From an uncultured Alphaproteobacteria bacterium (lineage in GTDB: Bacteria; Pseudomonadota; Alphaproteobacteria; HIMB59; GCA-002718135): a DNA stretch of 64,000 bases. Shown here piece by piece: positions 15,671 to 46,575 of the stretch. Every line of letters begins with the position of its first letter. Position 1 is the stretch's first letter. The stretch is taken from assembly GCA_902524385.1 (NCBI GenBank), contig CABZCZ010000007.1, positions 6,091-70,090 on the forward strand, in the 5' to 3' direction. The notes beneath the pieces were generated by a model, which did not search any database, was not told the origin of the DNA, and worked only from the letters and a program-made list of their open reading frames with translations. The translations under genes were made by a program, and so were the position numbers.

Positions 15671-16713
15671 TTTTTAAAAATAAAAGCTTGAGATTGATCT
15701 ATCTCAATTTCGACAGCAGATGATTGTTTAGGATTAAATTCTGGAGGCATGTGACTATGAACATGAATAACCTCATTATTGTCATCAAGCACTGAAAGAT
15801 GAACAAAACTGAAAGAACCCATTAATTTTGAGGCCATAACAGTACCTTTTATTCCATTAACCGGTGTTGGTTGTTGTTTTAATTTTACTCCTTGTGGTCT
15901 TACATGTATTTCTACATTTGTATTTTCAAGTTCATTTGGAGCTTTAATTTTTCCTACTGGCGTATCTACAAAAGAGTTATTAACTACTCCATGAAACCTA
16001 TTTGTTTCACCAAAAAATTCAGTCACATATGAATTTTTAGGATTTTTATATAATTCTGCCGGGCTACCAGATTGAATAATATATCCTGAGGTATCCATAA
16101 TATTTATTTGATTAGAAATGAACATAGCTTCAAATGGATCATGAGTAACAATAATCACTGATATGTTAGATTTTTGTAATAAATGCAAAGTATCATCCCT
16201 GACTTCTTCTCTTAAATTCAAATCAAGACTCGAAAATGGCTCATCTAATAAAAGTAAATCAGGTTGAGAAATAATTGATCTTGCTAATGCTACTCTTTGT
16301 TGCTCACCACCACTTAACTCATGGGGAAATTTATTTAGAGAGTTTGGAAGTTTTATTAAATCAATAATATCCTCAATTTTATAATTTGAATTTTTATAAT
16401 TTATGGGATACTCTAAGTTTTGCTTGACTGTTAAATGTGGAAACAAAGCATAGTCTTGAAATAAAAATCCAATTTTTCTCTTTTCAGTTGGTAAATGTTT
16501 TTTTGTACTACTCACCTCTTCTCCATTTATTAAGATTTCACCGGATTGTACTTTTTCTAAACCTGCAATAAGTTTTAATAATGTTGTTTTTCCACTTCCT
16601 GAAGGACCAAGAATACAAGAAATGCTATCCTTGGTTAGATTGAACTCAATATTATTTAAGATTTTTTTATTATTAATCTCATGAGTCAGATTTTTTACTT
16701 CAACAGCTAACAT
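15667..16713 (-). CDS. ABC transporter ATP-binding protein (FbpC/PotA type), convergent with sfuB
   Basis: Has Walker A GPSGSGKTT, the signature LSGGEQQRVALAR, Walker B LLLLDEP and a C-terminal TOBE-like domain. The stops overlap (CTAA). Confidence 0.85.
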   Translation of the reverse strand: MLAVEVKNLTHEINNKKILNNIEFNLTKDSISCILGPSGSGKTTLLKLIAGLEKVQSGEILINGEEVSSTKKHLPTEKRKIGFLFQDYALFPHLTVKQNLEYPINYKNSNYKIEDIIDLIKLPNSLNKFPHELSGGEQQRVALARSIISQPDLLLLDEPFSSLDLNLREEVRDDTLHLLQKSNISVIIVTHDPFEAMFISNQINIMDTSGYIIQSGSPAELYKNPKNSYVTEFFGETNRFHGVVNNSFVDTPVGKIKAPNELENTNVEIHVRPQGVKLKQQPTPVNGIKGTVMASKLMGSFSFVHLSVLDDNNEVIHVHSHMPPEFNPKQSSAVEIEIDQSQAFIFKN

Positions 16714-26579: not shown

Positions 26580-27473
26580 TTACTTCATGCCTGTCAAAGT
26601 AATTCCTTCAATAAATCGTTTTTGCGCGATTATAAAAGCAACAATAAGAGGAACTGTTACTGTAACTATCGAAGCCATCATAGGACCAAATTCGTCACTA
26701 TCAATTCCACCTCTGAATTCTCTTATACCAAGTGGTGGAGTAAAGAGATCTCTATTTCCTGTTATTACCATACGAGGCCAGAAATAATCATTCCAGTGTG
26801 CAACAACTGAGAATATTGCAAAAGCAAGTAAAGCTGGTATTGCAGTTGGAAGCATTACTTTCCATACAATTGCGTACTCTCCCATGCCATCCATCCTGGC
26901 GGCATCAATTAATTCATCGGGCACAGTCATAAAAAATTGCCGCATTAAAAAAATTCCAAACACTGATATTGTCCAGGGGAGTATTAAGGCGGAATAGGTA
27001 TCAACTAGTCCTGCCTGGGCCAACATAACATATAATGGAAGCGCAATTCCGTGAACTGGTATCAGCAAGCAAAATAAAACCATCGAGAAAACAAATTCTC
27101 GCCCATAAAACCGCAACTTGGCGAGTGCATACGCGCACGGCAAGGCGACTAAAACCTGAATAATAAAGATTGATAAAGTAACTATAACACCATTCATTAA
27201 GTATCTAGGAATAGGAGCTTTTTCAAAAGCAAACCAATAGTTGTATTGATATGGCTTCATTGTACATGTCTCCTCTGAATAGCCAGTTTTAACACATACG
27301 GGAAACGTTTGAGTTTCTTGCGCACCAATAAGACCACCAGAAATTGATTGGATTTCTTGCTGAGATTTTAATGACATTGAAACCATCATATAAAAAGGGA
27401 GCATCACTACGATAGCACCAATAATTAAGATTGCATGCTTCCAACCTTCCCCAATATATTGTTTAGCTTCCAT
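26580..27473 (-). CDS. ABC transporter permease, carbohydrate/glycerol-3-phosphate (UgpE-like) type
   Basis: Has 6 TM segments and an EAA loop (DELIDAARMDGMGEYAIVWKVMLP). Confidence 0.8.
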   Translation of the reverse strand: MEAKQYIGEGWKHAILIIGAIVVMLPFYMMVSMSLKSQQEIQSISGGLIGAQETQTFPVCVKTGYSEETCTMKPYQYNYWFAFEKAPIPRYLMNGVIVTLSIFIIQVLVALPCAYALAKLRFYGREFVFSMVLFCLLIPVHGIALPLYVMLAQAGLVDTYSALILPWTISVFGIFLMRQFFMTVPDELIDAARMDGMGEYAIVWKVMLPTAIPALLAFAIFSVVAHWNDYFWPRMVITGNRDLFTPPLGIREFRGGIDSDEFGPMMASIVTVTVPLIVAFIIAQKRFIEGITLTGMK

Positions 27474-28429
27474 TAATAATGAACCCTTCTCTCAATGATA
27501 TATCTTTGGAAGAAAGTTAATATCAATATAAAACCAATGAAGACAACAGTGATAGCTGCACCGATACTGGTTAAATTTTGTTGAATAGCTTTTTCAAAAA
27601 TTGCATACATCATAACGTAGGTTGTTTTAGATGGACCACCTTTTGTGAGTATTTCAATTGTATCAAAAACTTGAAAGGTTCTAATAGTCGTTATGGTTAC
27701 GACAAATAAAGTTGTTGGACCAAGCATTGGCCATGTCACAAGTTTAAATTGTTCCCAGGTTGATTTAGCTCCATCCATTTCTGCAGCTTGATATAGTTCT
27801 CTCGGTATACCTGTTAATCCAGCTAAATATAAAACCATATTGAAACCAAAGGCTTGCCATATTCCAATAAAACACACAGTCCAAATAGCAGTATTTTTTT
27901 GTTTTAACCAATAAGGAAAGTCCATGTTATTTGCACACGCCACTGCATACCAACTTTGTTCTGAGTCTACCCACGGCAACCAATGAAAACCAAAAATAAA
28001 TTCTCTTGCGCCACCACAACCATTAGCTAAAAAACTATTTACTATTCCAAGAGTTGGGTGAAGAGTGAATTCCCAAGCAATAGCCATTGCAAGAAGCGTC
28101 GCCATAACTGGAAGAAAGAAAATAGTTTTATATATATCAGCGCCAAACCTTAGTGAATTTAAGAGCATAGCAGCGCATAATCCAAGTACAACAGAAATTG
28201 GAACGACAACAATAACATACGTCGCTGTGGCCCAAATCATTTTGACATATGTTTTGCGATTGAACATCTTGTCATAATTTTCTAGTCCAACCCACTCGAA
28301 TGTTTTGTTTCCTAAATTATAGTCAGTAAAAGAAATTCCTCCTGCAAGAAAAAGAGGAAAGATTAAAATAATTATCATCAGTATGATTGCTGGTGCAATA
28401 AACCACAGATGAGCCTTTGAATTATGCAT
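27473..28429 (-). CDS. ABC transporter permease (UgpA-like)
   Basis: Has the EAA loop ELYQAAEMDGAKSTWEQFKLVTWP. It is coupled to the neighbouring permease by a 1-nt overlap. Confidence 0.8.
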   Translation of the reverse strand: MHNSKAHLWFIAPAIILMIIILIFPLFLAGGISFTDYNLGNKTFEWVGLENYDKMFNRKTYVKMIWATATYVIVVVPISVVLGLCAAMLLNSLRFGADIYKTIFFLPVMATLLAMAIAWEFTLHPTLGIVNSFLANGCGGAREFIFGFHWLPWVDSEQSWYAVACANNMDFPYWLKQKNTAIWTVCFIGIWQAFGFNMVLYLAGLTGIPRELYQAAEMDGAKSTWEQFKLVTWPMLGPTTLFVVTITTIRTFQVFDTIEILTKGGPSKTTYVMMYAIFEKAIQQNLTSIGAAITVVFIGFILILTFFQRYIIERRVHY

Positions 28430-28444
28430 TAGTAAATGTTATCC

Positions 28445-29584
28445 TTATCCCATTGCATTATTAAACTGAACCCTCATCCCTGTTTGATTAAATAACAATG
28501 CTTTATTTGAATCTCTTTTGATATTTACACTTGAACCATTTATAATTTGATGTGTAAATTGAGGTAAGCCTCTTACAATTATTTTTTTTGAGTTGTCTTC
28601 TATATTTACATGAAAGTATATATCTGACCCCAAATTTTCTCTGTAAGCAACAGTGCCACTAAATGTATTTTCATTACTTTCATTAGTAATTTCTAAATGT
28701 TCTGGTCGAATTCCAATGTGTAAATCGGAATTAATTTCAGAACTTTTTCTTTTCAGGTTAACATTTAAAAAATTAACAATTCCACTAGAGTCCGAAGATC
28801 CATTAAAAATATTTATTTTAGGACTGCCAACAAATTGAGCAACACTTAATGATGAAGGATTATCATAAACTTCTTGAGGTGTATCCAGTTGTAATAAATT
28901 TCCATCAATCATTACCGCCATACGAGAAGACATTGTCAATGCTTCTGCTTGATCATGTGTTACATAAACAAATGTTGTTTTAAGTGAATTGTGAAGTTCT
29001 GATAATTCGGATCGCATATGCACTCTTAGAGCGGCATCTAAATTTGATAGTGGTTCATCCATTAAGAATGCAACAGGTTCTCTTACCATTGCGCGACCAA
29101 GAGCTACTCTTTGTCTTTGGCCTCCTGATAATTGTCCTGGTTTTCTATCCAGTAGTTCAGAAATCTGAAGTGTTTCAGATGTTTTATTAACTAAGTGATT
29201 GATAGATTCAGTTTTACTTTTTTTGTTTGGAGAAAAATTCCCTATTAAAGGAAGGCGTTCGAAAGCATTATAATCTCTCAGTCTTAGAGGTGTTTCTAAA
29301 TTTCTTCGTACCGTTAAATGTGGATATAAAGCGTATGATTGAAATACCATTGCAAGATCTCGCTCGCTGGCTCTAATTTTATTTACATTCTTATTATCAA
29401 TTAATACATCGCCTGAAGTTTGTTGTTCTAATCCTGCAATGATTCGGAGTAAGGTAGATTTACCACAACCAGATGGACCAACTAATGTTAAAAATTCTCC
29501 ATCTTGTATATCAACATTTAAATTGTTTAATACTTGCGTAGATCCAAATGACTTTGAAATATTTTTAAGTGATATTGTGCCCAC
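28445..29584 (-). CDS. ABC transporter ATP-binding protein (UgpC/MalK type)
   Basis: Has GPSGCGKST, LSGGQRQRVALGRA and FLMDEP, plus a C-terminal regulatory domain. The GTG start is preceded by AAGGGGGGAG. Confidence 0.85.
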   Translation of the reverse strand: MGTISLKNISKSFGSTQVLNNLNVDIQDGEFLTLVGPSGCGKSTLLRIIAGLEQQTSGDVLIDNKNVNKIRASERDLAMVFQSYALYPHLTVRRNLETPLRLRDYNAFERLPLIGNFSPNKKSKTESINHLVNKTSETLQISELLDRKPGQLSGGQRQRVALGRAMVREPVAFLMDEPLSNLDAALRVHMRSELSELHNSLKTTFVYVTHDQAEALTMSSRMAVMIDGNLLQLDTPQEVYDNPSSLSVAQFVGSPKINIFNGSSDSSGIVNFLNVNLKRKSSEINSDLHIGIRPEHLEITNESNENTFSGTVAYRENLGSDIYFHVNIEDNSKKIIVRGLPQFTHQIINGSSVNIKRDSNKALLFNQTGMRVQFNNAMG

Positions 29585-29656
29585 TTAATCTCCCCCCTTA
29601 TTATTATATTTAATCTACAAAATTTTATTAAATTTGAGAATATTATAAATCCAATT

Positions 29657-29683
29657 ATTTCAGTTTTATTTCAATTTTATTAA
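29657..29683 (-). promoter_or_regulatory. Candidate Pho-box-like triple direct repeat (11-bp phase) in the divergent ABC/phnA spacer
   Basis: The minus strand reads TTAATaaaatTGAAATaaaacTGAAAT. Pentamers start at 29683, 29672 and 29661, exactly 11 bp apart. 13 of 16 positions are identical to the SBP-upstream element. Confidence 0.35.
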
Positions 29684-29762
29684 CAAATATTCAAATTATG
29701 ATTGAGTTTAACTAGCAGATAACTATAAATTCTTATTTTTAATGATATATATTATTTAAATC

Positions 29763-32443: not shown

Positions 32444-32500
32444 AATAACTAGTTTTTCTCTAATTTTTTTACTCCTGTGGAAAAATAAGCTTATTTTTTA

Positions 32501-32527
32501 GTAATATTTTCGTAATAAAATTGTAAC
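32501..32527 (+). promoter_or_regulatory. Candidate Pho-box-like triple direct repeat (11-bp phase) upstream of the SBP gene
   Basis: GTAATattttcGTAATaaaattGTAAC, with pentamers at 32501, 32512 and 32523. The proximal repeat ends 53 nt before the ATG. The layout resembles the E. coli pho box (7-nt repeat plus 4-nt AT spacer). Confidence 0.4.
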
Positions 32528-32579
32528 CCTTTGGTGCTACATGTTAGATTAAATAATTATATTCAATCGGGAGGATTAA

Positions 32580-33833
32580 ATGAAAAAATTAATTATAGGA
32601 TTGGCAGCCGTACTAGCCTTTGGTTTTTATGGTTCTGTTAATTCAGCTAAGTCTATTGAAATAGAAGTAGCTTATCCCTATTCAGGGTTATTCGATGTAA
32701 CGTTTCAAGCTATTATGCCGGAGTTTGAAAAAGCACATCCAGATATTCAAGTTAAATTTAGAGCAACTTATGAAAACTATGAAGATGCAACTGCAACAAT
32801 CTTTAGAGAGTCTACTTCAGGTAATTTACCAGATGTAACAATGCAAGGTCTTAACAGACAGGCACCTCTAGTTGACAAAGGTATTGCTAAGTCTTTAGAG
32901 CCATTTATTGCAAAAGAGGCAGCTTTTGAAAAAGATGGTTACCATTCTGCTATGTTAAGTCTTTCAACATTCGGTGGTGAAGTTTATGGATTACCATTTT
33001 CTGTATCAACGCCAGTTGGTTATTATAACATGGATTTATTAGCTGAAGCAGGTGTAGATAGTATTCCAACTAACTGGGACGAAGTTATTGCAGCATGTAA
33101 GAAATTGGAAGCAGCAGGTAAAGGAACTCTATACTTTGGTTGGAACATTACAGGTAACTGGTTCCACCAAGCATTAATGCACACTCAGAACGTTCCAATG
33201 GTTAAGGATGGAGCTGTAAATATGGGTGGTGATGCAGGACTTGCAACGTTAGAGCAAATGAAAGCAATCATGAGCGAATGTAATATGCCGAACTATTCAA
33301 TTGCTGATGGTCAAGCTGCGTTTAACGCAGGTACTCTTGGTATGCAGTTCTGGTCTACTTCTAGCTTGGGTTCAGTTAATGCTGCAAAGGCAGACTTTGT
33401 TTTAAAAACTGCACCATTCCCTGGAATGGCAGGAGTTAACAATGGAACACCAGCAAGATTACCAGCAGGTGGAAACGCTGCAATGTTAGTGTCTACATCT
33501 GATGATCCAGCAAGAGTTGATGCTGCATGGACTTTCTTAAAGTTCATTACATCAGGTATTGGTGCTGCATTAGTTGCTGAAACAACTGGATATGTTCCAC
33601 CGAACAAAGCAGCGAATGAATTATTAGGTGATTTCTATAGTAACAACCCTAATAAACTTACTGCAGTTGAACAACTTCCACTTCTTGCAGATTGGTTTGC
33701 ATATCCTGGAGAAAATGGATTAGCTATTACACAGGTAATCTATGATTATACAGAAGAAATTGCTACAGGCGATGCTGATGATATGGCAGATCTTCAAGAA
33801 GAAATGATGGAAGAAATAAACGATCTTATGTAA
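32580..33833 (+). CDS. ABC transporter substrate-binding protein, family 1 (UgpB-like); ligand unknown (phosphonate, glycerophosphodiester or G3P are candidates)
   Basis: It is 417 aa with a signal peptide and a strong SD (GGGAGG). It is noticeably more GC-rich than its surroundings. Confidence 0.8.
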   Translation: MKKLIIGLAAVLAFGFYGSVNSAKSIEIEVAYPYSGLFDVTFQAIMPEFEKAHPDIQVKFRATYENYEDATATIFRESTSGNLPDVTMQGLNRQAPLVDKGIAKSLEPFIAKEAAFEKDGYHSAMLSLSTFGGEVYGLPFSVSTPVGYYNMDLLAEAGVDSIPTNWDEVIAACKKLEAAGKGTLYFGWNITGNWFHQALMHTQNVPMVKDGAVNMGGDAGLATLEQMKAIMSECNMPNYSIADGQAAFNAGTLGMQFWSTSSLGSVNAAKADFVLKTAPFPGMAGVNNGTPARLPAGGNAAMLVSTSDDPARVDAAWTFLKFITSGIGAALVAETTGYVPPNKAANELLGDFYSNNPNKLTAVEQLPLLADWFAYPGENGLAITQVIYDYTEEIATGDADDMADLQEEMMEEINDLM

Positions 33834-33863
33834 TTTGAGATTATTTATTATTAACTTTTTATT

Positions 33864-33895
33864 ACAGCGGCTTTATAAAAGCCGCTGTTTTATTT
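33864..33895 (+). terminator. Rho-independent terminator after the SBP gene
   Basis: ACAGCGGCTTT-ata-AAAGCCGCTGT followed by TTTATTTT. Confidence 0.8.
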
Positions 33896-40440: not shown

Positions 40441-40965
40441 ATGCAATTTAGCAATTATGATTTTATTGACTCTAAGTCATTTGCAGGCAAAATTATATTA
40501 ACTTCTTTTCCAGGTCTTAATTCTAATGGTTTATTTGAAGAAACAATTTTAGCAAACGAATTAGAAATATTTAAAAATAACAATTGTAGTTCTATTACTT
40601 CTTTTGTTGAAGATAGCGAATTTGAAAAATTGTGTGATAAAACTTTGTTTGTCAAAAATATTTATGAACATAAATTACATTGGTACCATTTACCCATTTA
40701 TGACATGGGAGCACCAGATAAAGATTTTAAATATAAATGGGAAACAACAAAAGTTTTATTAAAGAACGAATTGATAGATGGTAAAAATATAGTTTTACAT
40801 TGCCGTGGAGGAAAAGGAAGAGCTGGCACCATAGCTGCTATTTTACTTGTTGAATTTAATTATCAAAAACAAGAAGCTATCGATCTAGTGCGATCAAGAA
40901 GAAAAGGGGCTATTGAATCTAAAATCCAGGAAGATTTTATTTTTTCTTATCGAGCAGTTGATTAA
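40441..40965 (+). CDS. Cys-based (CX5R) dual-specificity/PTP-like phosphatase, cytoplasmic
   Basis: Has the P-loop HCRGGKGRAGT and an upstream DMGAPD general-acid loop. There is no signal peptide. Confidence 0.7.
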   Translation: MQFSNYDFIDSKSFAGKIILTSFPGLNSNGLFEETILANELEIFKNNNCSSITSFVEDSEFEKLCDKTLFVKNIYEHKLHWYHLPIYDMGAPDKDFKYKWETTKVLLKNELIDGKNIVLHCRGGKGRAGTIAAILLVEFNYQKQEAIDLVRSRRKGAIESKIQEDFIFSYRAVD

Positions 40966-42014
40966 AAAGAGACCGTTAAATTAAAAATATTTTCTAGAAT
41001 AAATAAAACAATTAAAGAAATTAATGCTGCAATTATAGGTAGTGTCATCCAACCCAAAGAAATTCTTCCCGCAATTGACCATTGAACCTCTTTGCCTCCT
41101 TTTAAAAGACCAATTCCAATTACGCCGCCAACAACAGCTTGGGAACTTGATACTGGAACCAAAGGTATAGAGGGAAGATTTATAGATTGTAAAAAAGCAC
41201 TTATGCCCTGGGATGCAAATAAAAATAAAACAATAGAATGCGATATAACAACAATAAATGCTGCCACAGGCGTCATTTTTAAAAGATCATTACCAACGGT
41301 AAACATAACTCTTTTCGAGTAAGTAAAAACACCAACGGCTATTGCTAAACCACCCAGCAGAAATAATTGTTCTTTTGAAGAAAAGACAAGTAAATTTCCA
41401 ATAGAAACATCAGTAAATGGCGATATAGGTACGAAGACCCCCATTACATTGGCAATATTGTTTGCACCTAAACTATAAGCACCAAAAGCACCCGCTAAAA
41501 GTAAAGCTGTTCTTGTGTAAGCATCAAGTCTGAGAATATGTAACTTTCTATTAAGTATAACTCTTTTTGTAAAAGTAAATAAACCCATTGCAATAACCCC
41601 TGCAATGATAGGACAGAGTATCCATGTTCCTAAAATAGTAATTAAAACTTGAAGATTAGTTGAAGATCCCGTGTATAAATTCCAACCAACAATTGCTCCA
41701 ACAATCGCTTGCGTTGTTGAAACAGGCAAGCCAACTTTGGTCATTAAATAAACAGATATTCCCGCAGCGACACATGCTGCAAAAGCACCAGGTAATGCAT
41801 TAATAGCACCTAACTTACCTAAAGTTTCTGTTGTACCTGCTCCGCTAATAATTGCACCCAGAATAACAAAGACACTACAAATTATTGCTGCAGTTGTGAA
41901 ACCAACCATTCGCGTCCCAACAGCAGTCCCAAAAACATTTGCTGCATCATTGGCACCAAGTGACCAACCTAAAAAAAGACCACCAAATAAAAAAATTAGA
42001 ATTGTAATTTCCAT
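40962..42014 (-). CDS. pit: Inorganic phosphate transporter, PiT family
   Basis: Has two GANDAANVFGT/GANNIANVMG repeats and LPVSTTQAIVG/VPVSSSQAVVG. Confidence 0.88.
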   Translation of the reverse strand: MEITILIFLFGGLFLGWSLGANDAANVFGTAVGTRMVGFTTAAIICSVFVILGAIISGAGTTETLGKLGAINALPGAFAACVAAGISVYLMTKVGLPVSTTQAIVGAIVGWNLYTGSSTNLQVLITILGTWILCPIIAGVIAMGLFTFTKRVILNRKLHILRLDAYTRTALLLAGAFGAYSLGANNIANVMGVFVPISPFTDVSIGNLLVFSSKEQLFLLGGLAIAVGVFTYSKRVMFTVGNDLLKMTPVAAFIVVISHSIVLFLFASQGISAFLQSINLPSIPLVPVSSSQAVVGGVIGIGLLKGGKEVQWSIAGRISLGWMTLPIIAALISLIVLFILENIFNLTVSF

Positions 42015-42020
42015 TGAAAA

Positions 42021-42683
42021 TTAAACGGAACGTTTAATAGCGTAAATTTGAACCTCGTCAGCTATGTCTTCTGCTTGATCACAAATACGATCAATCTTCT
42101 CTACAAAATATCGAAGATGCATTTTTTGATCTAGAGGTAATTCAGAGTCAAAAATTCTTCTTGCAAGAGAACTAAATTTTATATCAGATTCTTTTTCATA
42201 AAATGTAACTTTATGTGCATTATCTCTAACAGATTTAATATCTCTAAAAAATGATCTTACGGTTAAACATAATGATTCAACACAATTTACAACAGTCTCT
42301 GTTAACTCAATTAAATCTTGGTGAAACTCTTTTGGAAAATTAGGTTTTTGAATAGAGAAGTGATAACAATTCCCTTGGTACATTCCAATTAATTCGTCGA
42401 TGTGTTCTAAAAGTCTTAAAACGTCACTTCTTGCATCTGGGATTAGTGTTTCTTCATAAAGAGTATGCTCAACATCTTTCGTAATCTTGTCTGCCTTACT
42501 TTCCATTTCTTTTACTTTTTCAACCATTTCCTCAAATTTACCGTTGGCGGAATGATTTAGATAAGTTGGAACTATCGATTTAAATACCAAACCAACTTCA
42601 GAGACAATATCAACAAATTCATCAATTTCTCTTTCAAGTTTCTTGGTATCACCAAATAAAGATGCACTTTTTAGTCCAAACAT
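42021..42683 (-). CDS. DUF47/TIGR00153 PhoU-like phosphate-transport regulator partner of PiT
   Basis: It is a 220-aa helical protein immediately upstream of pit, the usual pairing. Confidence 0.75.
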   Translation of the reverse strand: MFGLKSASLFGDTKKLEREIDEFVDIVSEVGLVFKSIVPTYLNHSANGKFEEMVEKVKEMESKADKITKDVEHTLYEETLIPDARSDVLRLLEHIDELIGMYQGNCYHFSIQKPNFPKEFHQDLIELTETVVNCVESLCLTVRSFFRDIKSVRDNAHKVTFYEKESDIKFSSLARRIFDSELPLDQKMHLRYFVEKIDRICDQAEDIADEVQIYAIKRSV

Positions 42684-42722
42684 GGCGTGCTTATAGAACT
42701 TTTCAAAAAAAAATAAAGAAAT

Positions 42723-42749
42723 GTTAAAAATTCGTTACAATTTGATTAA
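42723..42749 (-). promoter_or_regulatory. Candidate Pho-box-like triple direct repeat upstream of the DUF47-pit operon
   Basis: The minus strand reads TTAATcaaatTGTAACgaatttTTAAC, with pentamers exactly 11 bp apart. 14 of 16 positions are identical to GTAATAAAATTGTAAC upstream of the SBP. The proximal repeat lies 40 nt before the ATG. Confidence 0.4.
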
Positions 42750-42805
42750 TATCTTTATCTTTAGGATACATATATTAATGAAAATTTTCAGTATTTAGGA
42801 GTTTT

Positions 42806-43033
42806 ATGACAGATATATCAATTAATAGAATTAAGTGGTTTAGCACCTTTTTAATCTTGTCAGGAATATTATTAACTAACTTAAATGCATATCCATATAA
42901 TATTATTATACATGGAACAGGTGCAGTTGGTTGGTCAGTAGTTGGTTATATGACAAGAGATAAAGCTTTATTAACAAACTTTGGATTACAATTACCTCTT
43001 TTTCTTTTTGGATACGTCTATTTATTTGTTTAG
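42806..43033 (+). CDS. Small hydrophobic protein (75 aa, 2-3 TM), unknown function
   Basis: The ORF has AGGAG 6 nt upstream of the ATG and TM-like segments. No family was recognised. Confidence 0.45.
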   Translation: MTDISINRIKWFSTFLILSGILLTNLNAYPYNIIIHGTGAVGWSVVGYMTRDKALLTNFGLQLPLFLFGYVYLFV

Positions 43034-43041
43034 AAAAGTTA

Positions 43042-44049
43042 TTAGTTTTTAGAATCAATTTGAGAATCTAGAAATTCATTAGCACAATCTTCCCAAGTAA
43101 ATTTCAAAGCTAAATTACGACAATCATTTCTATTCACTTTAAGAGCTTTTTCTACTGAATTACCTAGTCTGTCATCAAGTGTATTTATTTTAGAATCTTT
43201 TAGAATATCTTTTGGTCCAGTAACAGGAAATGCAGCAATTGGTGTCCCGCAAGCAAGAGCTTCAAGTATTACATTCCCTAAAGTATCCGTTTTAGATGGG
43301 AAAACAAATACATCAGCATTCGCATAATATTCTGCAAGTTCATTACCTCGTTTCAACCCAACAAAATTTACGTCAGGATACTTTTTTATATATTTTTGTA
43401 ATTCAGGACCATCACCTACAACTGTTTTATTATAATTTCCTTTTAGTTTTAAAAATTCTTCAATATTTTTTTCAATAGCAACTCTTCCAACATATGTCAG
43501 TTGAATGTCATTATCATTTCTATTTCTTTTATTTGGGTTGAATAATTCAGTATCAACTCCTCTATTCCATACTTTTAAATTTTTGAAATTATATTGCTCT
43601 AATTCTTCGACCATTGAAAGCGATGGAACAAGTACATTTACAGAATTATCATGAAGCCTTCTTAATATTGAATATGTTAAACTTTTAGGAATATAAGCTC
43701 TCTGTTTAATATAATCAGGAAAACGGGTGTGAAAAGAAGAAGTATATCGTAGTTTATTTTTAACACAGTATTTACGACCAGCAAAACCTACTGGACCTTC
43801 AGTCATTATATGAACAATATCAGGATTAAATTCTTTAAAAAATTTTTCTGTAACTTTTTTAGTATTTAAAGAAATTTTAATTTCTTTGTACCAAGGATAA
43901 CTAAAATTATTAAACATCTCAGGATGTAATATTTTAATTTCAAAACCTTTTTTTTCTAGGAGAGGTATAACGCTTTGAAATGTTGTAACTACGCCATTTA
44001 CCTGAGGAACCCACGCATCACTAATTAACGCGATTTTTTTAAGCTGCAT
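43042..44049 (-). CDS. agt: GT4 glycosyltransferase, probable glycolipid (MGDG/GADG) synthase Agt
   Basis: GT-B/GT4 C-terminal block (VFPSKTDTLGNVILEALACGTP). It overlaps the upstream PlcP-like gene by 11 nt. Confidence 0.7.
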   Translation of the reverse strand: MQLKKIALISDAWVPQVNGVVTTFQSVIPLLEKKGFEIKILHPEMFNNFSYPWYKEIKISLNTKKVTEKFFKEFNPDIVHIMTEGPVGFAGRKYCVKNKLRYTSSFHTRFPDYIKQRAYIPKSLTYSILRRLHDNSVNVLVPSLSMVEELEQYNFKNLKVWNRGVDTELFNPNKRNRNDNDIQLTYVGRVAIEKNIEEFLKLKGNYNKTVVGDGPELQKYIKKYPDVNFVGLKRGNELAEYYANADVFVFPSKTDTLGNVILEALACGTPIAAFPVTGPKDILKDSKINTLDDRLGNSVEKALKVNRNDCRNLALKFTWEDCANEFLDSQIDSKN

Positions 44050-44851
44050 CCTCTTTTATTTTTCGTCTTTCTTCTAAAGAAATTAATTTTAATTTTTCTC
44101 TTTCTTTGGGCCAATTAAGAATTGATAAATTTCCAATTTCATCTTCAACGAGTGCTGTGCAACTTTCAATCCAGTCACCATCATTACAATAGAGAACACC
44201 ATTTAATTCTTTTATTTCTGGTCTATGTATATGCCCACACACAACGACATCGGCATTTTCTCTTCTAGCTCTATCAGATACAGCAAACTCAAAGTTACTA
44301 ATAAAGTTCGTTGCATGCTTTGTTTTCTTTTTTAAATATTGAGACAGTGACCAGTAAGATAAGCCCATCTTTCTTCGAATAAAATTAAATACATTATTTA
44401 ACTTTAGTAAATATTCATAAAGTGCTGATCCCACTTTGGCTAACCATCTTGCATTAATGATCACAGCATCAAATTCATCTCCGTGTGTAATCAGTACTTT
44501 CCTTCCATCAGCTAATTGATGCGTATCTTCATTTTTGATTGAAATTTCTCCAAAGGAAAAATTTGTAAAATCTTTTAATACTTCATCATGATTTCCTGGG
44601 ATAAGCACTACCTTAGTTCCATTTTTCGCTTTTTTTAAAACTTTTTGAACCACATCATTATGTTCTTGAGACCAATACATTTTCTTACGCATGCGCCATC
44701 CATCTACAATGTCGCCTACTAAAAATAGATATTCTGAATCTGTTTCCTCTAAGAATTCTAAAAGCATTTTGCTTTTACAGCCACTGGTTCCTAGATGGGT
44801 ATCCGAAATCCAAATTGTGCGGTAAAATTTTTTATTTGTTTCAAATTTCAT
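44039..44851 (-). CDS. plcP: LpxH-like metallophosphoesterase, probable phospholipase C PlcP (phosphorus-stress lipid remodelling)
   Basis: Has IWISDTHLG, VGDIVDGW, GNHD and CGHIHRP. It is paired with a GT4 gene, as described for SAR11 and roseobacter PlcP-Agt. Confidence 0.7.
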   Translation of the reverse strand: MKFETNKKFYRTIWISDTHLGTSGCKSKMLLEFLEETDSEYLFLVGDIVDGWRMRKKMYWSQEHNDVVQKVLKKAKNGTKVVLIPGNHDEVLKDFTNFSFGEISIKNEDTHQLADGRKVLITHGDEFDAVIINARWLAKVGSALYEYLLKLNNVFNFIRRKMGLSYWSLSQYLKKKTKHATNFISNFEFAVSDRARRENADVVVCGHIHRPEIKELNGVLYCNDGDWIESCTALVEDEIGNLSILNWPKEREKLKLISLEERRKIKEDAA

Positions 44852-44937
44852 TAATTAAAGAATTGTTCTTATACATAAAAGTATCATTTTATAATACAAT
44901 TTATTATTATATGTGTGTATTGTAAAAAAATAACAGT

Positions 44938-45435
44938 ATGACGGAGAAAATTTGGTTTAAAAAAAAATCACCCCTTCACGGCTCTGGATTATTTGCAAAA
45001 ACTAATATTAAAAAAGGTCAGAAAGTAATCCAATATATTGGTGATAAAGTTACTAAAAGAGAGGGTGACAAAAGAGCAGATAAACAAATCCGTAAAGCAA
45101 AAAAAGATAAAAATAACGGCATGGTCTATGTTTTTGAACTAAACAAGCGATACGACATAGACGGTGATGTCGATTATAATTTTGCAAAATTTATTAACCA
45201 CTCATGTAATCCTAATTGTGAAGTAGACATCATAGATAATGAAATTTGGATTTCTTCCATTAAACAAATAAAAAAAGGTGCCGAACTTTTTTATAATTAT
45301 GGTTATCCTTTTGATACAGATTTTGTGGATCACATTTGTAAGTGTGGTTCTAGAAATTGTGTGGGTTATATTTTAAGCGATAATGATTGGCCTAAATTAA
45401 AAAAAGAACTCAAAAAGAATAGAGGTAAGCTTTAA
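44938..45435 (+). CDS. SET-domain protein (putative lysine methyltransferase) with a post-SET Cys cluster
   Basis: Has GSGLFA, NHSCNPNC, ELFYNYGY and CKCGSRNCVGY. Confidence 0.85.
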   Translation: MTEKIWFKKKSPLHGSGLFAKTNIKKGQKVIQYIGDKVTKREGDKRADKQIRKAKKDKNNGMVYVFELNKRYDIDGDVDYNFAKFINHSCNPNCEVDIIDNEIWISSIKQIKKGAELFYNYGYPFDTDFVDHICKCGSRNCVGYILSDNDWPKLKKELKKNRGKL

Positions 45436-46391
45436 AAACCGTTTGGTATCAAAACATAATGAATTGATAAAACAATTCCAACAGATACTGTTAATCCAAA
45501 AATCATTTTAAGAAAATCTTTTCCAATTAATGGAAAGACATAGCGAAGTTTGTAATCTTTGTTCATTGTAGAAATCGCAAGTTCTCTTCCACATAATAAA
45601 CCAACAAAGACCCATGTAGTTGACATTGGAATATCATTGTATTGCTTAAAGTAGAGTAGAATGACTGCATAAACAAAATCAATTATAGTTGCTGAACGAG
45701 TATAACGTGTTCCAGTTTTTGAATAGACAACTCGTTGAATGCGTCCACCTCTATCCCAAAAGATATAAAATAAGAGAACACTTAATAAAACAATTATTGC
45801 TATTAATAAATTTACTGGAAGTTCACGAGGAAGAAAAACAGCTATATTCGCAATATCATGACTTAACCAAGTGTACCAAAGAAAACCAGTTGTACACCAT
45901 TGAGCTATTACCCATGGTTTTCTGTGTTTATCTTGAACTTTATCAAATTTTTCATTTATAAAATAACTTACACCAATCCAAACCATATACGCTATCATTG
46001 CTGCCAATCCGTATCCAATTACAGATTTCATCAGAACTTTTTCTAATACGACTGTTGATGCAAAAGCAGACAAAACTAAGAAAGTAGTAGATACTGGAAT
46101 TCCACCTCTTGTAAGAAGTACTAAAATTAATGGAGCACAAGCATGATACCACTGAATAGTTTGATATGGAATTTTATTTAAACGTCCAAAAGTAATATCA
46201 CCATCGTTAATGGTCCATCCATATATAAGTGTAAATGCTAGTACAGCAGAGCCAGCAGTAGCTAACCAGTACCATTTAAAGCGTTGGTTTGAAGCTATAA
46301 ATGTTCCAAGAGTTTGAACAGAGTCGTTTGCGATAACAGAATATGCTGCAAGTCCAAAACCTATAACTGTATAGATTAAAGTTAATTCCAT
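45432..46391 (-). CDS. Divergent PiT/PHO4-superfamily-like permease
   Basis: Shows two-fold internal repeat signatures: ANDSVQTLGTF...GIPVSTTFLV and SHDIANIAVFL...IPMSTTWVFVG. These parallel the PiT GANDxAN...IPxSTT motifs. It is 319 aa. Confidence 0.5.
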   Translation of the reverse strand: MELTLIYTVIGFGLAAYSVIANDSVQTLGTFIASNQRFKWYWLATAGSAVLAFTLIYGWTINDGDITFGRLNKIPYQTIQWYHACAPLILVLLTRGGIPVSTTFLVLSAFASTVVLEKVLMKSVIGYGLAAMIAYMVWIGVSYFINEKFDKVQDKHRKPWVIAQWCTTGFLWYTWLSHDIANIAVFLPRELPVNLLIAIIVLLSVLLFYIFWDRGGRIQRVVYSKTGTRYTRSATIIDFVYAVILLYFKQYNDIPMSTTWVFVGLLCGRELAISTMNKDYKLRYVFPLIGKDFLKMIFGLTVSVGIVLSIHYVLIPNGF

Positions 46392-46575
46392 TTTAAAAAC
46401 CTTATATTTTTTTCAATTAGATTCGAAAGATAATTATTTTTTATGATAAAAAAATAATACTTCTGTAAGAAATATGTAAAATAAGAACCGTAAGTTCTGC
46501 AGGTTATAGCTTTGGGCATAATTAAGCCCTAAAATTCACTTATACAAATCACTATTCAAACTATAAAACTATCAT

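Follow-up and report, generated by a model that had tools for sequence, protein, structure and literature searches.

Is the short phased repeat in front of an SBP gene a Pho box, and does it place several phosphorus operons under one regulator? The initial annotation of this locus had answered both parts with yes, proposing a local Pho box and at least three co-regulated transcription units. We compared the repeat with chance expectation, with the pstS, pstC and phoB promoters of relatives, and with the gene content around it.

The phosphorus island and its three arrays

The window (the whole 64-kb stretch of DNA that was analysed) has ~30% GC and is syntenic with 80 Pelagibacterales (SAR11) single-cell genomes. 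Its 25.7-44.9 kb portion is a SAR11 phosphonate and phosphorus-scavenging island, with the gene order phn_DUF6, a UgpAEC-like ABC transporter on the minus strand, phnA and phnY, the UgpB-like SBP gene, a MetE-like gene, psrA, an unknown gene, a spdA-like phosphodiesterase gene, a cupin gene, phnW, phnZ with a phosphatase gene, DUF47-pit and agt-plcP. No transcription factor gene was found in the island of the window, nor any regulator gene in the related loci examined. A tblastn search of the window and 80 SBP loci with E. coli PhoB, PstS and PhoU gave no match, and an Rfam search of 25000-48000 gave no RNA family. The operons and arrays at issue are as follows.

26580-29584, minus strand: genes for the ATPase and the two permeases of a UgpC/UgpA/UgpE-like ABC transporter; presumed target operon
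29657-29683, minus strand: ABC-operon array TTAAT/GAAAT/GAAAT, a predicted degenerate Pho box facing the ATPase gene (ranks 2 and 4 in the matrix scan given below)
32499-32527, plus strand: SBP array, a predicted Pho box with units TAGTAAT/TCGTAAT/TTGTAAC in 11-bp phase (read directly and found by the matrix)
32580-33833, plus strand: SBP gene, periplasmic and UgpB-like (PF01547/PF13416), with a terminator after it at 33864-33888
40962-42683, minus strand: operon of DUF47 (PhoU_div) and the low-affinity phosphate transporter Pit (PHO4)
42723-42749, minus strand: DUF47-pit array TTAAT/GTAAC/TTAAC, an exact triple of KTAAY

The SBP was also considered as AepX, and this identity was rejected because the Pfam families differ, AepX belonging to pfam13343 (PMC8316502) and the SBP to PF01547/PF13416. 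Between the spdA-like and cupin genes of L010, L014, L026, L031, L033, L078 and L022 (about 15.5-18.6 kb) lies a further UgpB-like ABC transporter, made up of an SBP and two permeases, with TTAAC-N6-TTAAT upstream of it. The extra ABC transporters of L010, L017 and L052 were examined as possible pst genes and rejected, as they are annotated as UgpB-like, sugar-type and choline-type.

The stretch 32501-32533 reads GTAATattttcGTAATaaaattGTAACcctttg. Its pentamers, GTAAT (32501-32505), GTAAT (32512-32516) and GTAAC (32523-32527), start 11 bp apart exactly as the initial annotation had given them, and the last is separated from the SBP ATG at 32580 by 52 nt. The seven-letter units are a 5/7 match to E. 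coli CTGTCAT. The related 16-mers described upstream of the other two operons were likewise found, TTAATCAAATTGTAAC at 42734-42749 and TTAATAAAATTGAAAT at 29668-29683, both on the minus strand and each within a triple 11-bp array. The recurrence of the 16-mer, which had been offered as evidence, did not hold up: matches with at most three mismatches numbered 7 against 3.85 expected, a count reached in 16/100 shuffles. The relaxed dimer KTAAY-N6-KTAAY was also at chance frequency in the window (10 against 10.1 expected), and both searches were dropped as evidence. Two exact KTAAY triples, those of SBP and pit, were found where 0.10 were expected, a count reached in 1/100 shuffles; each is in the promoter region of a phosphorus operon and is oriented toward the gene.

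In the lineage of the window, the phnY-SBP spacer is best conserved at CGTAATAAAATTGTAAC, which comprises units 2 and 3 (identity 0.96-0.98 over 49 distinct spacers). This stretch is followed by 10 variable nucleotides (0.69) and then by a conserved CTACATG (0.90) and TAGATT. In lineage B, whose SBP is 86% identical, the spacer is unrelated, yet it carries TTAACATATTCTTAACAT at the same place, in the form TTAACA-N5-TTAACA. The pit array varies in relatives only by G/T at position 1, as in L051 (GTAACAAATTTGTAACA, matrix score 16.9) and L054 (TTAAT/TTAAC/TTAAC), and the ABC array is replaced at the same position by TTAACATAAATTTTACA in lineage B, CTAACATAAATTTAACA in L077 and GTAACATTTATTTAATA in L079. 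In the ABC-phnA spacer of L017 and L042 exactly one 11-bp unit is missing; therefore, the ABC array gains and loses whole units in the manner of a tandem repeat. The motif is thus kept upstream of the orthologous operons across the 80 single-cell genomes, with tolerated substitutions (G/T at position 1, TAAC kept).

A separate block, CTGTGGAAAAA at 32474-32484, lies ~17 nt upstream of SBP unit 1 and is kept in the diverged L051-L057, whose boxes are degenerate; a second protein may bind there.

Promoters of the pst and pho genes in relatives

The pst and pho genes were reached through the plcP homologue contig L082, which carries SET-phoR-pstS beside plcP. The N-terminus of its PstS retrieved 13 SAR11-like contigs (L085-L097) of ~31% GC, and the longer ones hold agt and plcP leftward, then SET, phoR, pstS, pstC, pstA, pstB, phoU and phoB rightward. 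All recovered pstS promoters, in 8 distinct versions, contain exactly one [GT]TAAT-N6-[GT]TAA[TC] at -57 to -62 from the ATG, and one version, GTAATAAAATTGTAAT, matches the SBP 16-mer at 15/16 positions. GTAAT-N6-GTAA[TCA] was present in every phoB promoter recovered from the related contigs.

We built a position weight matrix (PWM) from 13 external pstS and phoB sites, none of them from the window or its 80 loci; their consensus is yTGTAATAwAwTTGTAAyA. Sites in the pstS-pstC spacers, outside the training set, scored 18-24 (23.3 for TTGTAATATAATTGTAACAAA), and some contigs have a TTAAT/GTAAT/GTAAC triple there. A scan of both strands of the window (128 kb) gave the following matches.

32499-32519, plus strand: score 14.4, SBP array, rank 1
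29665-29685, minus strand: score 14.0, ABC array, rank 2
46463-46483, plus strand: score 13.2, phoB-remnant junction
29654-29674, minus strand: score 12.9, ABC array, rank 4
32510-32530, plus strand: score 12.5, SBP array, rank 5
33847-33867, minus strand: score 11.7, SBP-metE spacer
16163-16183, plus strand: score 10.3, coding sequence
42731-42751, minus strand: score 10.2, pit array (second pit score 7.7)

Against a first-order Markov null matched to the AT content of the window's own intergenic DNA, 5 intergenic matches of at least 12 were observed where 0.07 were expected, and 2 pairs in 11-bp phase where 0.001 were expected. The motif is therefore far commoner than in random AT-matched intergenic DNA. 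Together with the conservation at orthologous operons, this means that the proposal survived the two checks by which the initial annotation would have given it up. The window sites score 10-14 against 17-24 for the training sites, and no single window match exceeds 15.8, the 95th percentile of the whole-window shuffle maximum. Across ~1.9 Mb of SAR11 loci, matches of at least 11 were found almost only upstream of SBP, ABC ATPase, DUF47, pstS, pstC, phoB and plcP genes, with only 8 in coding sequence. The recurrent exceptions were a site on the minus strand of the SBP-metE spacer, seen in 43 loci, and the phoB-remnant junction site upstream of murJ. In the lineage of the window the plcP promoter has no convincing box, though plcP is a known Pho-regulon marker; boxes at plcP were found only in other lineages, as a phased array in L083/84 and a reverse-oriented dimer in L082/85. 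The phnW/phnZ spacer had no match of at least 7.

The SBP-metE spacer site is a Pho-box-like dimer, CTGTAATAAAAAGTTAATAAT, which points antisense to SBP, directly beside the SBP terminator hairpin (33864-33888). At the corresponding position, the distant lineage L079 carries a box-like triple.

A second shared feature is the distance to a TA dinucleotide, which starts exactly 10 nt past the last pentamer in 17/17 pstS, phoB and pstC sites and also at the SBP site. The candidate promoter elements are listed below.

32538-32543, plus strand: TACATG, candidate -10, starting exactly 10 nt past the last SBP unit
32542-32550, plus strand: TGtTAGATT, putative alternative extended -10, 17 nt past GTAAC
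29642-29647, minus strand: TATAAT, candidate -10 of the ABC promoter, 9 nt (not 10) past the last GAAAT

TAGATT was dropped as the sole -10 of SBP, since the pstS and phoB data point to TACATG at +10; both stay candidates. TGtTAGATT is conserved at 0.93 in the SBP spacer, the ABC ATPase gene is preceded by a similar element, TGTAGATTAAA, with TAGATT at 29617-29612, and TGtTAGATT could be a PhoB-independent basal promoter. The promoter scan of the SBP strand found no TTGACA-type -35 and no sigma-70 -35/-10 consensus.

These elements bear on whether the repeat is part of an ordinary promoter, with a -35-like hexamer (TTGTAA, TTAACA or TTTACA for TTGACA) and a phased A/T-rich UP element or curved DNA in place of an activator site. 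The promoter-proximal unit does lie 17 nt upstream of TAGATT, TTAACA and TTTACA match TTGACA at 5/6 positions, TTTACA occupies a plausible -35 position in the plcP promoters of other lineages, and KTAAY dimers are no more frequent than chance in this AT-rich window. However, the same direct repeat of two units, in which both the G at position 1 and the following A are conserved, is also seen at pstS, pstC and phoB, and it is missing from the other intergenic regions of the window. The fixed 10 nt to TA would place the units at about -27 and -38 rather than at -35, and the sigma-70 scan was negative. We consider this explanation very unlikely.

The protein expected to read the repeat is itself well conserved. 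SAR11 PhoB (L096) shares 51% identity with E. coli PhoB, its recognition helix RTVDVHIRRLRKA is identical, and the wing Arg is kept. A different reader would be a LysR-type phosphonate regulator, AepR/PhnR, as in Roseobacters and Pseudomonas, or another protein of the OmpR family, across which 11-bp-phased direct repeats are typical. The 2-AEP clusters of other marine Alphaproteobacteria (phnWAY with aepXVW) do have a LysR-type regulator and are phosphate-insensitive (PMC8316502). However, no regulator gene was found in the island of the window or in the related loci examined, LysR sites are dyad-symmetric (T-N11-A) whereas the SBP repeats are direct and not inverted, and the identical motif at phoB and pstS points to PhoB specifically. 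We consider such a regulator very improbable here.

The sharing of [GT]TAAT-N6-GTAA[TC] with pstS, pstC and phoB promoters supports the Pho-box reading, and the SBP triple is very probably the SAR11 Pho box, the predicted DNA site of phosphorylated PhoB. The proposal of a local Pho box thus gained ground, as every SAR11 contig recovered has the same repeat ahead of pstS, pstC and phoB, which is what defines a Pho box. As predicted Pho boxes, the sequence comparisons support a grading of SBP as strong, ABC as moderate and pit as weaker. ABC is graded moderate because GAAAT is degenerate (the TGAAAT unit has T->A at one position invariant in all 13 training sites), yet the array takes rank 2 in the scan and keeps its position in relatives. 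The pit array, with its score of 10.2, has no TA at +10. Of the three co-regulated units that had been proposed, SBP and ABC thus stand with strong and moderate support; the case is weaker for pit, and for all three it is qualified by the lack of phoB and phoR at the syntenic position of the window.

The absent phoR-pstSCAB-phoU-phoB cluster

Both L096 and L097 match the window at 97% in two blocks, 40512-45405 and from 46481 onward, and between these blocks they carry 6.9 kb with phoR-pstSCAB-phoU-phoB. The window has a short replacement at this place.

45406-46480: 1.07-kb segment replacing phoR-pstSCAB-phoU-phoB, delimited by the alignment with L096 and L097
46481-46516, plus strand: phoB remnant, the last 12 codons (tblastn with SAR11 PhoB, residues 215-226, 83% identity)

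The blastn alignments with L096, L097, L090 and L085 all resume at 46481. The replacing segment contains an ORF for a 319-aa multi-pass membrane protein at 45432-46391 on the minus strand, whose only match to PHO4 is sub-threshold (E=0.002). No phoB, phoR or pst gene was found within the 64-kb window, which has a deletion scar at the syntenic position. As phoB and phoR are missing there, co-regulation in this cell remains a candidate, and the cell may hold boxes without a regulator.

The replacement haplotype is also present in L100-L112 and L117, and 115 blocks of the collection list the identical 319-aa protein. An identical DUF47 protein is encoded in ten contigs, of which 6 have the 319-aa allele and 4 have phoBR-pst; the SBP box equals that of the window in 7/7 of these that hold the SBP gene, and the pit box is the same in 9/10. 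Three of the six regulator-less contigs, L109, L110 and L111 (about 15.5-20.2 kb), have also lost the SBP, MetE-like, psrA and ABC genes, and there phnY and phnA directly adjoin an unknown 368-aa gene and the EamA (phn_DUF6) gene. The SBP box of the phoBR-lacking single-cell genome AG-337-F02 (L050/L101) has two mutated units. It has been reported that pstSCAB-phoU, phoB and phoR occur in only 55% of offshore SAR11 genomes and that the others appear to rely on pitA (PMC12636525).

These observations raise the alternative that the arrays are Pho boxes by descent only, with no regulator in this cell, so that SBP and ABC would be transcribed from the extended -10 (TGnTAGATT) or would be silent. 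The boxes would persist because the phoBR-pst polymorphism is recent and the population recombines. The replaced cluster with its 12-codon phoB remnant, the wide spread of the regulator-less haplotype, the identity of SBP and pit boxes between contigs with and without phoBR, the gene losses in three of six contigs lacking phoBR, the mutated box of AG-337-F02 and the 55% figure all fit this alternative, and Prochlorococcus CCMP1375 offers a precedent in keeping Pho boxes without sphR (PMC1906773). Against it, phoB could lie outside the 64 kb of the genome that was seen, none of the island ORFs in the window is disrupted, and the window boxes are perfect. We regard the alternative as a credible but minority possibility. 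A more specific proposal is that phoR-pstSCAB-phoU-phoB is a presence/absence allele in one recombining SAR11 population, with a single PiT-like membrane-protein gene as its counterpart. Perfect boxes would persist in both types of cell, and in regulator-less cells they would be either orphaned, with the phosphonate and organophosphate uptake genes on extended -10 promoters or decaying, as the loss of the transporter genes from three of six such contigs would suggest, or read by another regulator. This proposal is tentative, and we think it rather unlikely.

Two further observations concern this region. GTAA(A/G)-N6-GTAA(A/T/C) dimers scoring 13-17.6 were found at the phoB-remnant junction of the window (46463-46483) and in the plcP-SET spacers of L082 and L085/L086; those of the other lineages face SET-phoR, and on the opposite strand the dimers read TTACA-N6-TTACA, which is -35-like for plcP and for the 319-aa ORF. 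L100 and L117 contain a PhoB-like fragment (about 8082-8549 in L100) with 58% identity to residues 3-195 of SAR11 PhoB, amid fragmented pieces of murJ in a long-read contig of the regulator-less allele. The fragment may have arisen in assembly or may represent a decayed second copy of the regulator.

Predicted control and comparison with known Pho boxes

Where PhoB is present, a mechanism can be proposed for the SBP promoter. The unit would be (T)TGTAA(T/C) with an A/T-rich spacer, that is, E. coli CTGTCAT with its two C's turned into T and A in a 30% GC genome, and PhoB~P dimers would occupy neighbouring units in head-to-tail orientation. The promoter-proximal unit would end 10 nt before the weak putative -10 TACATG; with no -35 present, a bound activator would therefore replace the -35 contact. 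From this 10-nt geometry, the identical PhoB helix and the lack of TTGACA, we infer by homology that class-II-type activation by PhoB~P is most likely. Phosphate starvation would then switch on the SBP gene, probably with the metE-like gene and psrA by read-through, and the similar array at the UgpAEC-like ABC genes would allow the transporter to be co-induced. The overlapping extended -10 at SBP, and the similar one at ABC, might give basal expression independent of PhoB.

The DUF47-pit promoter is built differently. Its array ends 39 nt before the DUF47 ATG, TATAAG lies at 42690-42695, 6 nt before that ATG, and there is no Shine-Dalgarno sequence ahead of it (42684-42695), which together suggest a leaderless mRNA. 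The phoB promoters of related contigs resemble it, with TAAAAA ~7 nt before the ATG. In S. meliloti the homologous operon orfA-pit is repressed, not activated, on Pi starvation (PMC3131613), so regulation at pit may go in either direction. The pit array would be a weaker, differently placed site, and by analogy PhoB may act there as a repressor.

SAR11 is the most abundant heterotroph of the surface ocean, with very few transcription factors and a barely mapped regulatory code, and our literature searches found no defined SAR11 Pho box. Such a box is what a known system would be expected to have; the host is new and the consensus has drifted. What appears mildly new, as read from the sequence, is the predicted phosphate control of a transporter beside phnA and phnY in SAR11, and the occurrence of perfect boxes alongside a deleted regulator locus. 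If validated, TGTAAT-N5-TGTAAy followed by TA 10 nt on would make the SAR11 Pho regulon readable from genomes and metagenomes. Validation would also place the UgpB-like transporter beside phnA/phnY under phosphate control, whereas 2-aminoethylphosphonate catabolism in Roseobacters is substrate-induced and phosphate-insensitive. The presence/absence allele of phoBR-pst beside intact boxes would serve as a natural experiment on a regulon after the loss of its regulator.

At E. coli pstS there are four units, arranged as two boxes, whereas the SAR11 arrays have 2-3 units. The E. coli Pho box consists of 11-bp direct repeats, with a CTGTCAT core and a 4-bp A/T spacer, 10 bp upstream of the -10 (PMC2648988, PMC1906773). 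The SAR11 repeat shares the 11-bp period, the A/T-rich spacer and the G-T and A-T core positions (TTGTAAT against CTGTCAT), as well as a last unit 10 nt before a TA-initiated putative -10 with no -35. It is also found at pstS and phoB, the latter implying autoregulation, and the PhoB recognition helix is identical. Unlike in E. coli, the core C's are replaced by T and A, pentamer position 1 tolerates T (TTAAT, TTAAC), and the presumed -10 is very weak with only TA conserved.

The PhoP box of Bacillus subtilis is TT(A/T/C)ACA-N5. That of cyanobacterial SphR has at least three tandem 8-bp repeats, CTTAACCT, with a 3-bp linker (PMC1906773). SAR11 resembles both in its TTAAC-type cores in AT-rich marine genomes, its triple arrays in 11-bp phase and the TTAACA-N5-TTAACA form of lineage B. 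However, the regulators are different orthologues, and the pstS and phoB sites of SAR11 prefer GTAAT, which is nearer to the proteobacterial TGTCAT; AT pressure has probably made the sites converge.

S. meliloti has an alphaproteobacterial PhoB, a CTGTCAT-type box and a Pho box at orfA (DUF47/PhoU-like)-pit, as at DUF47-pit here (PMC3131613); its orfA-pit box lies just upstream of the start codon, whereas the SAR11 array ends well before the ATG. A parallel to the missing regulator is in the Prochlorococcus/Synechococcus strains CCMP1375, CC9311 and CC9902, in which sphR is lost and Pho-box-like sites are orphaned, a loss linked to phosphate-supply ecology (PMC1906773). As in these cyanobacteria, Pho-box-like sites stand beside phosphorus genes while the regulator gene is missing, here within the 64 kb seen. 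In contrast to them, the loss in SAR11 is a polymorphism within a population, with identical flanks and boxes that are still perfect.
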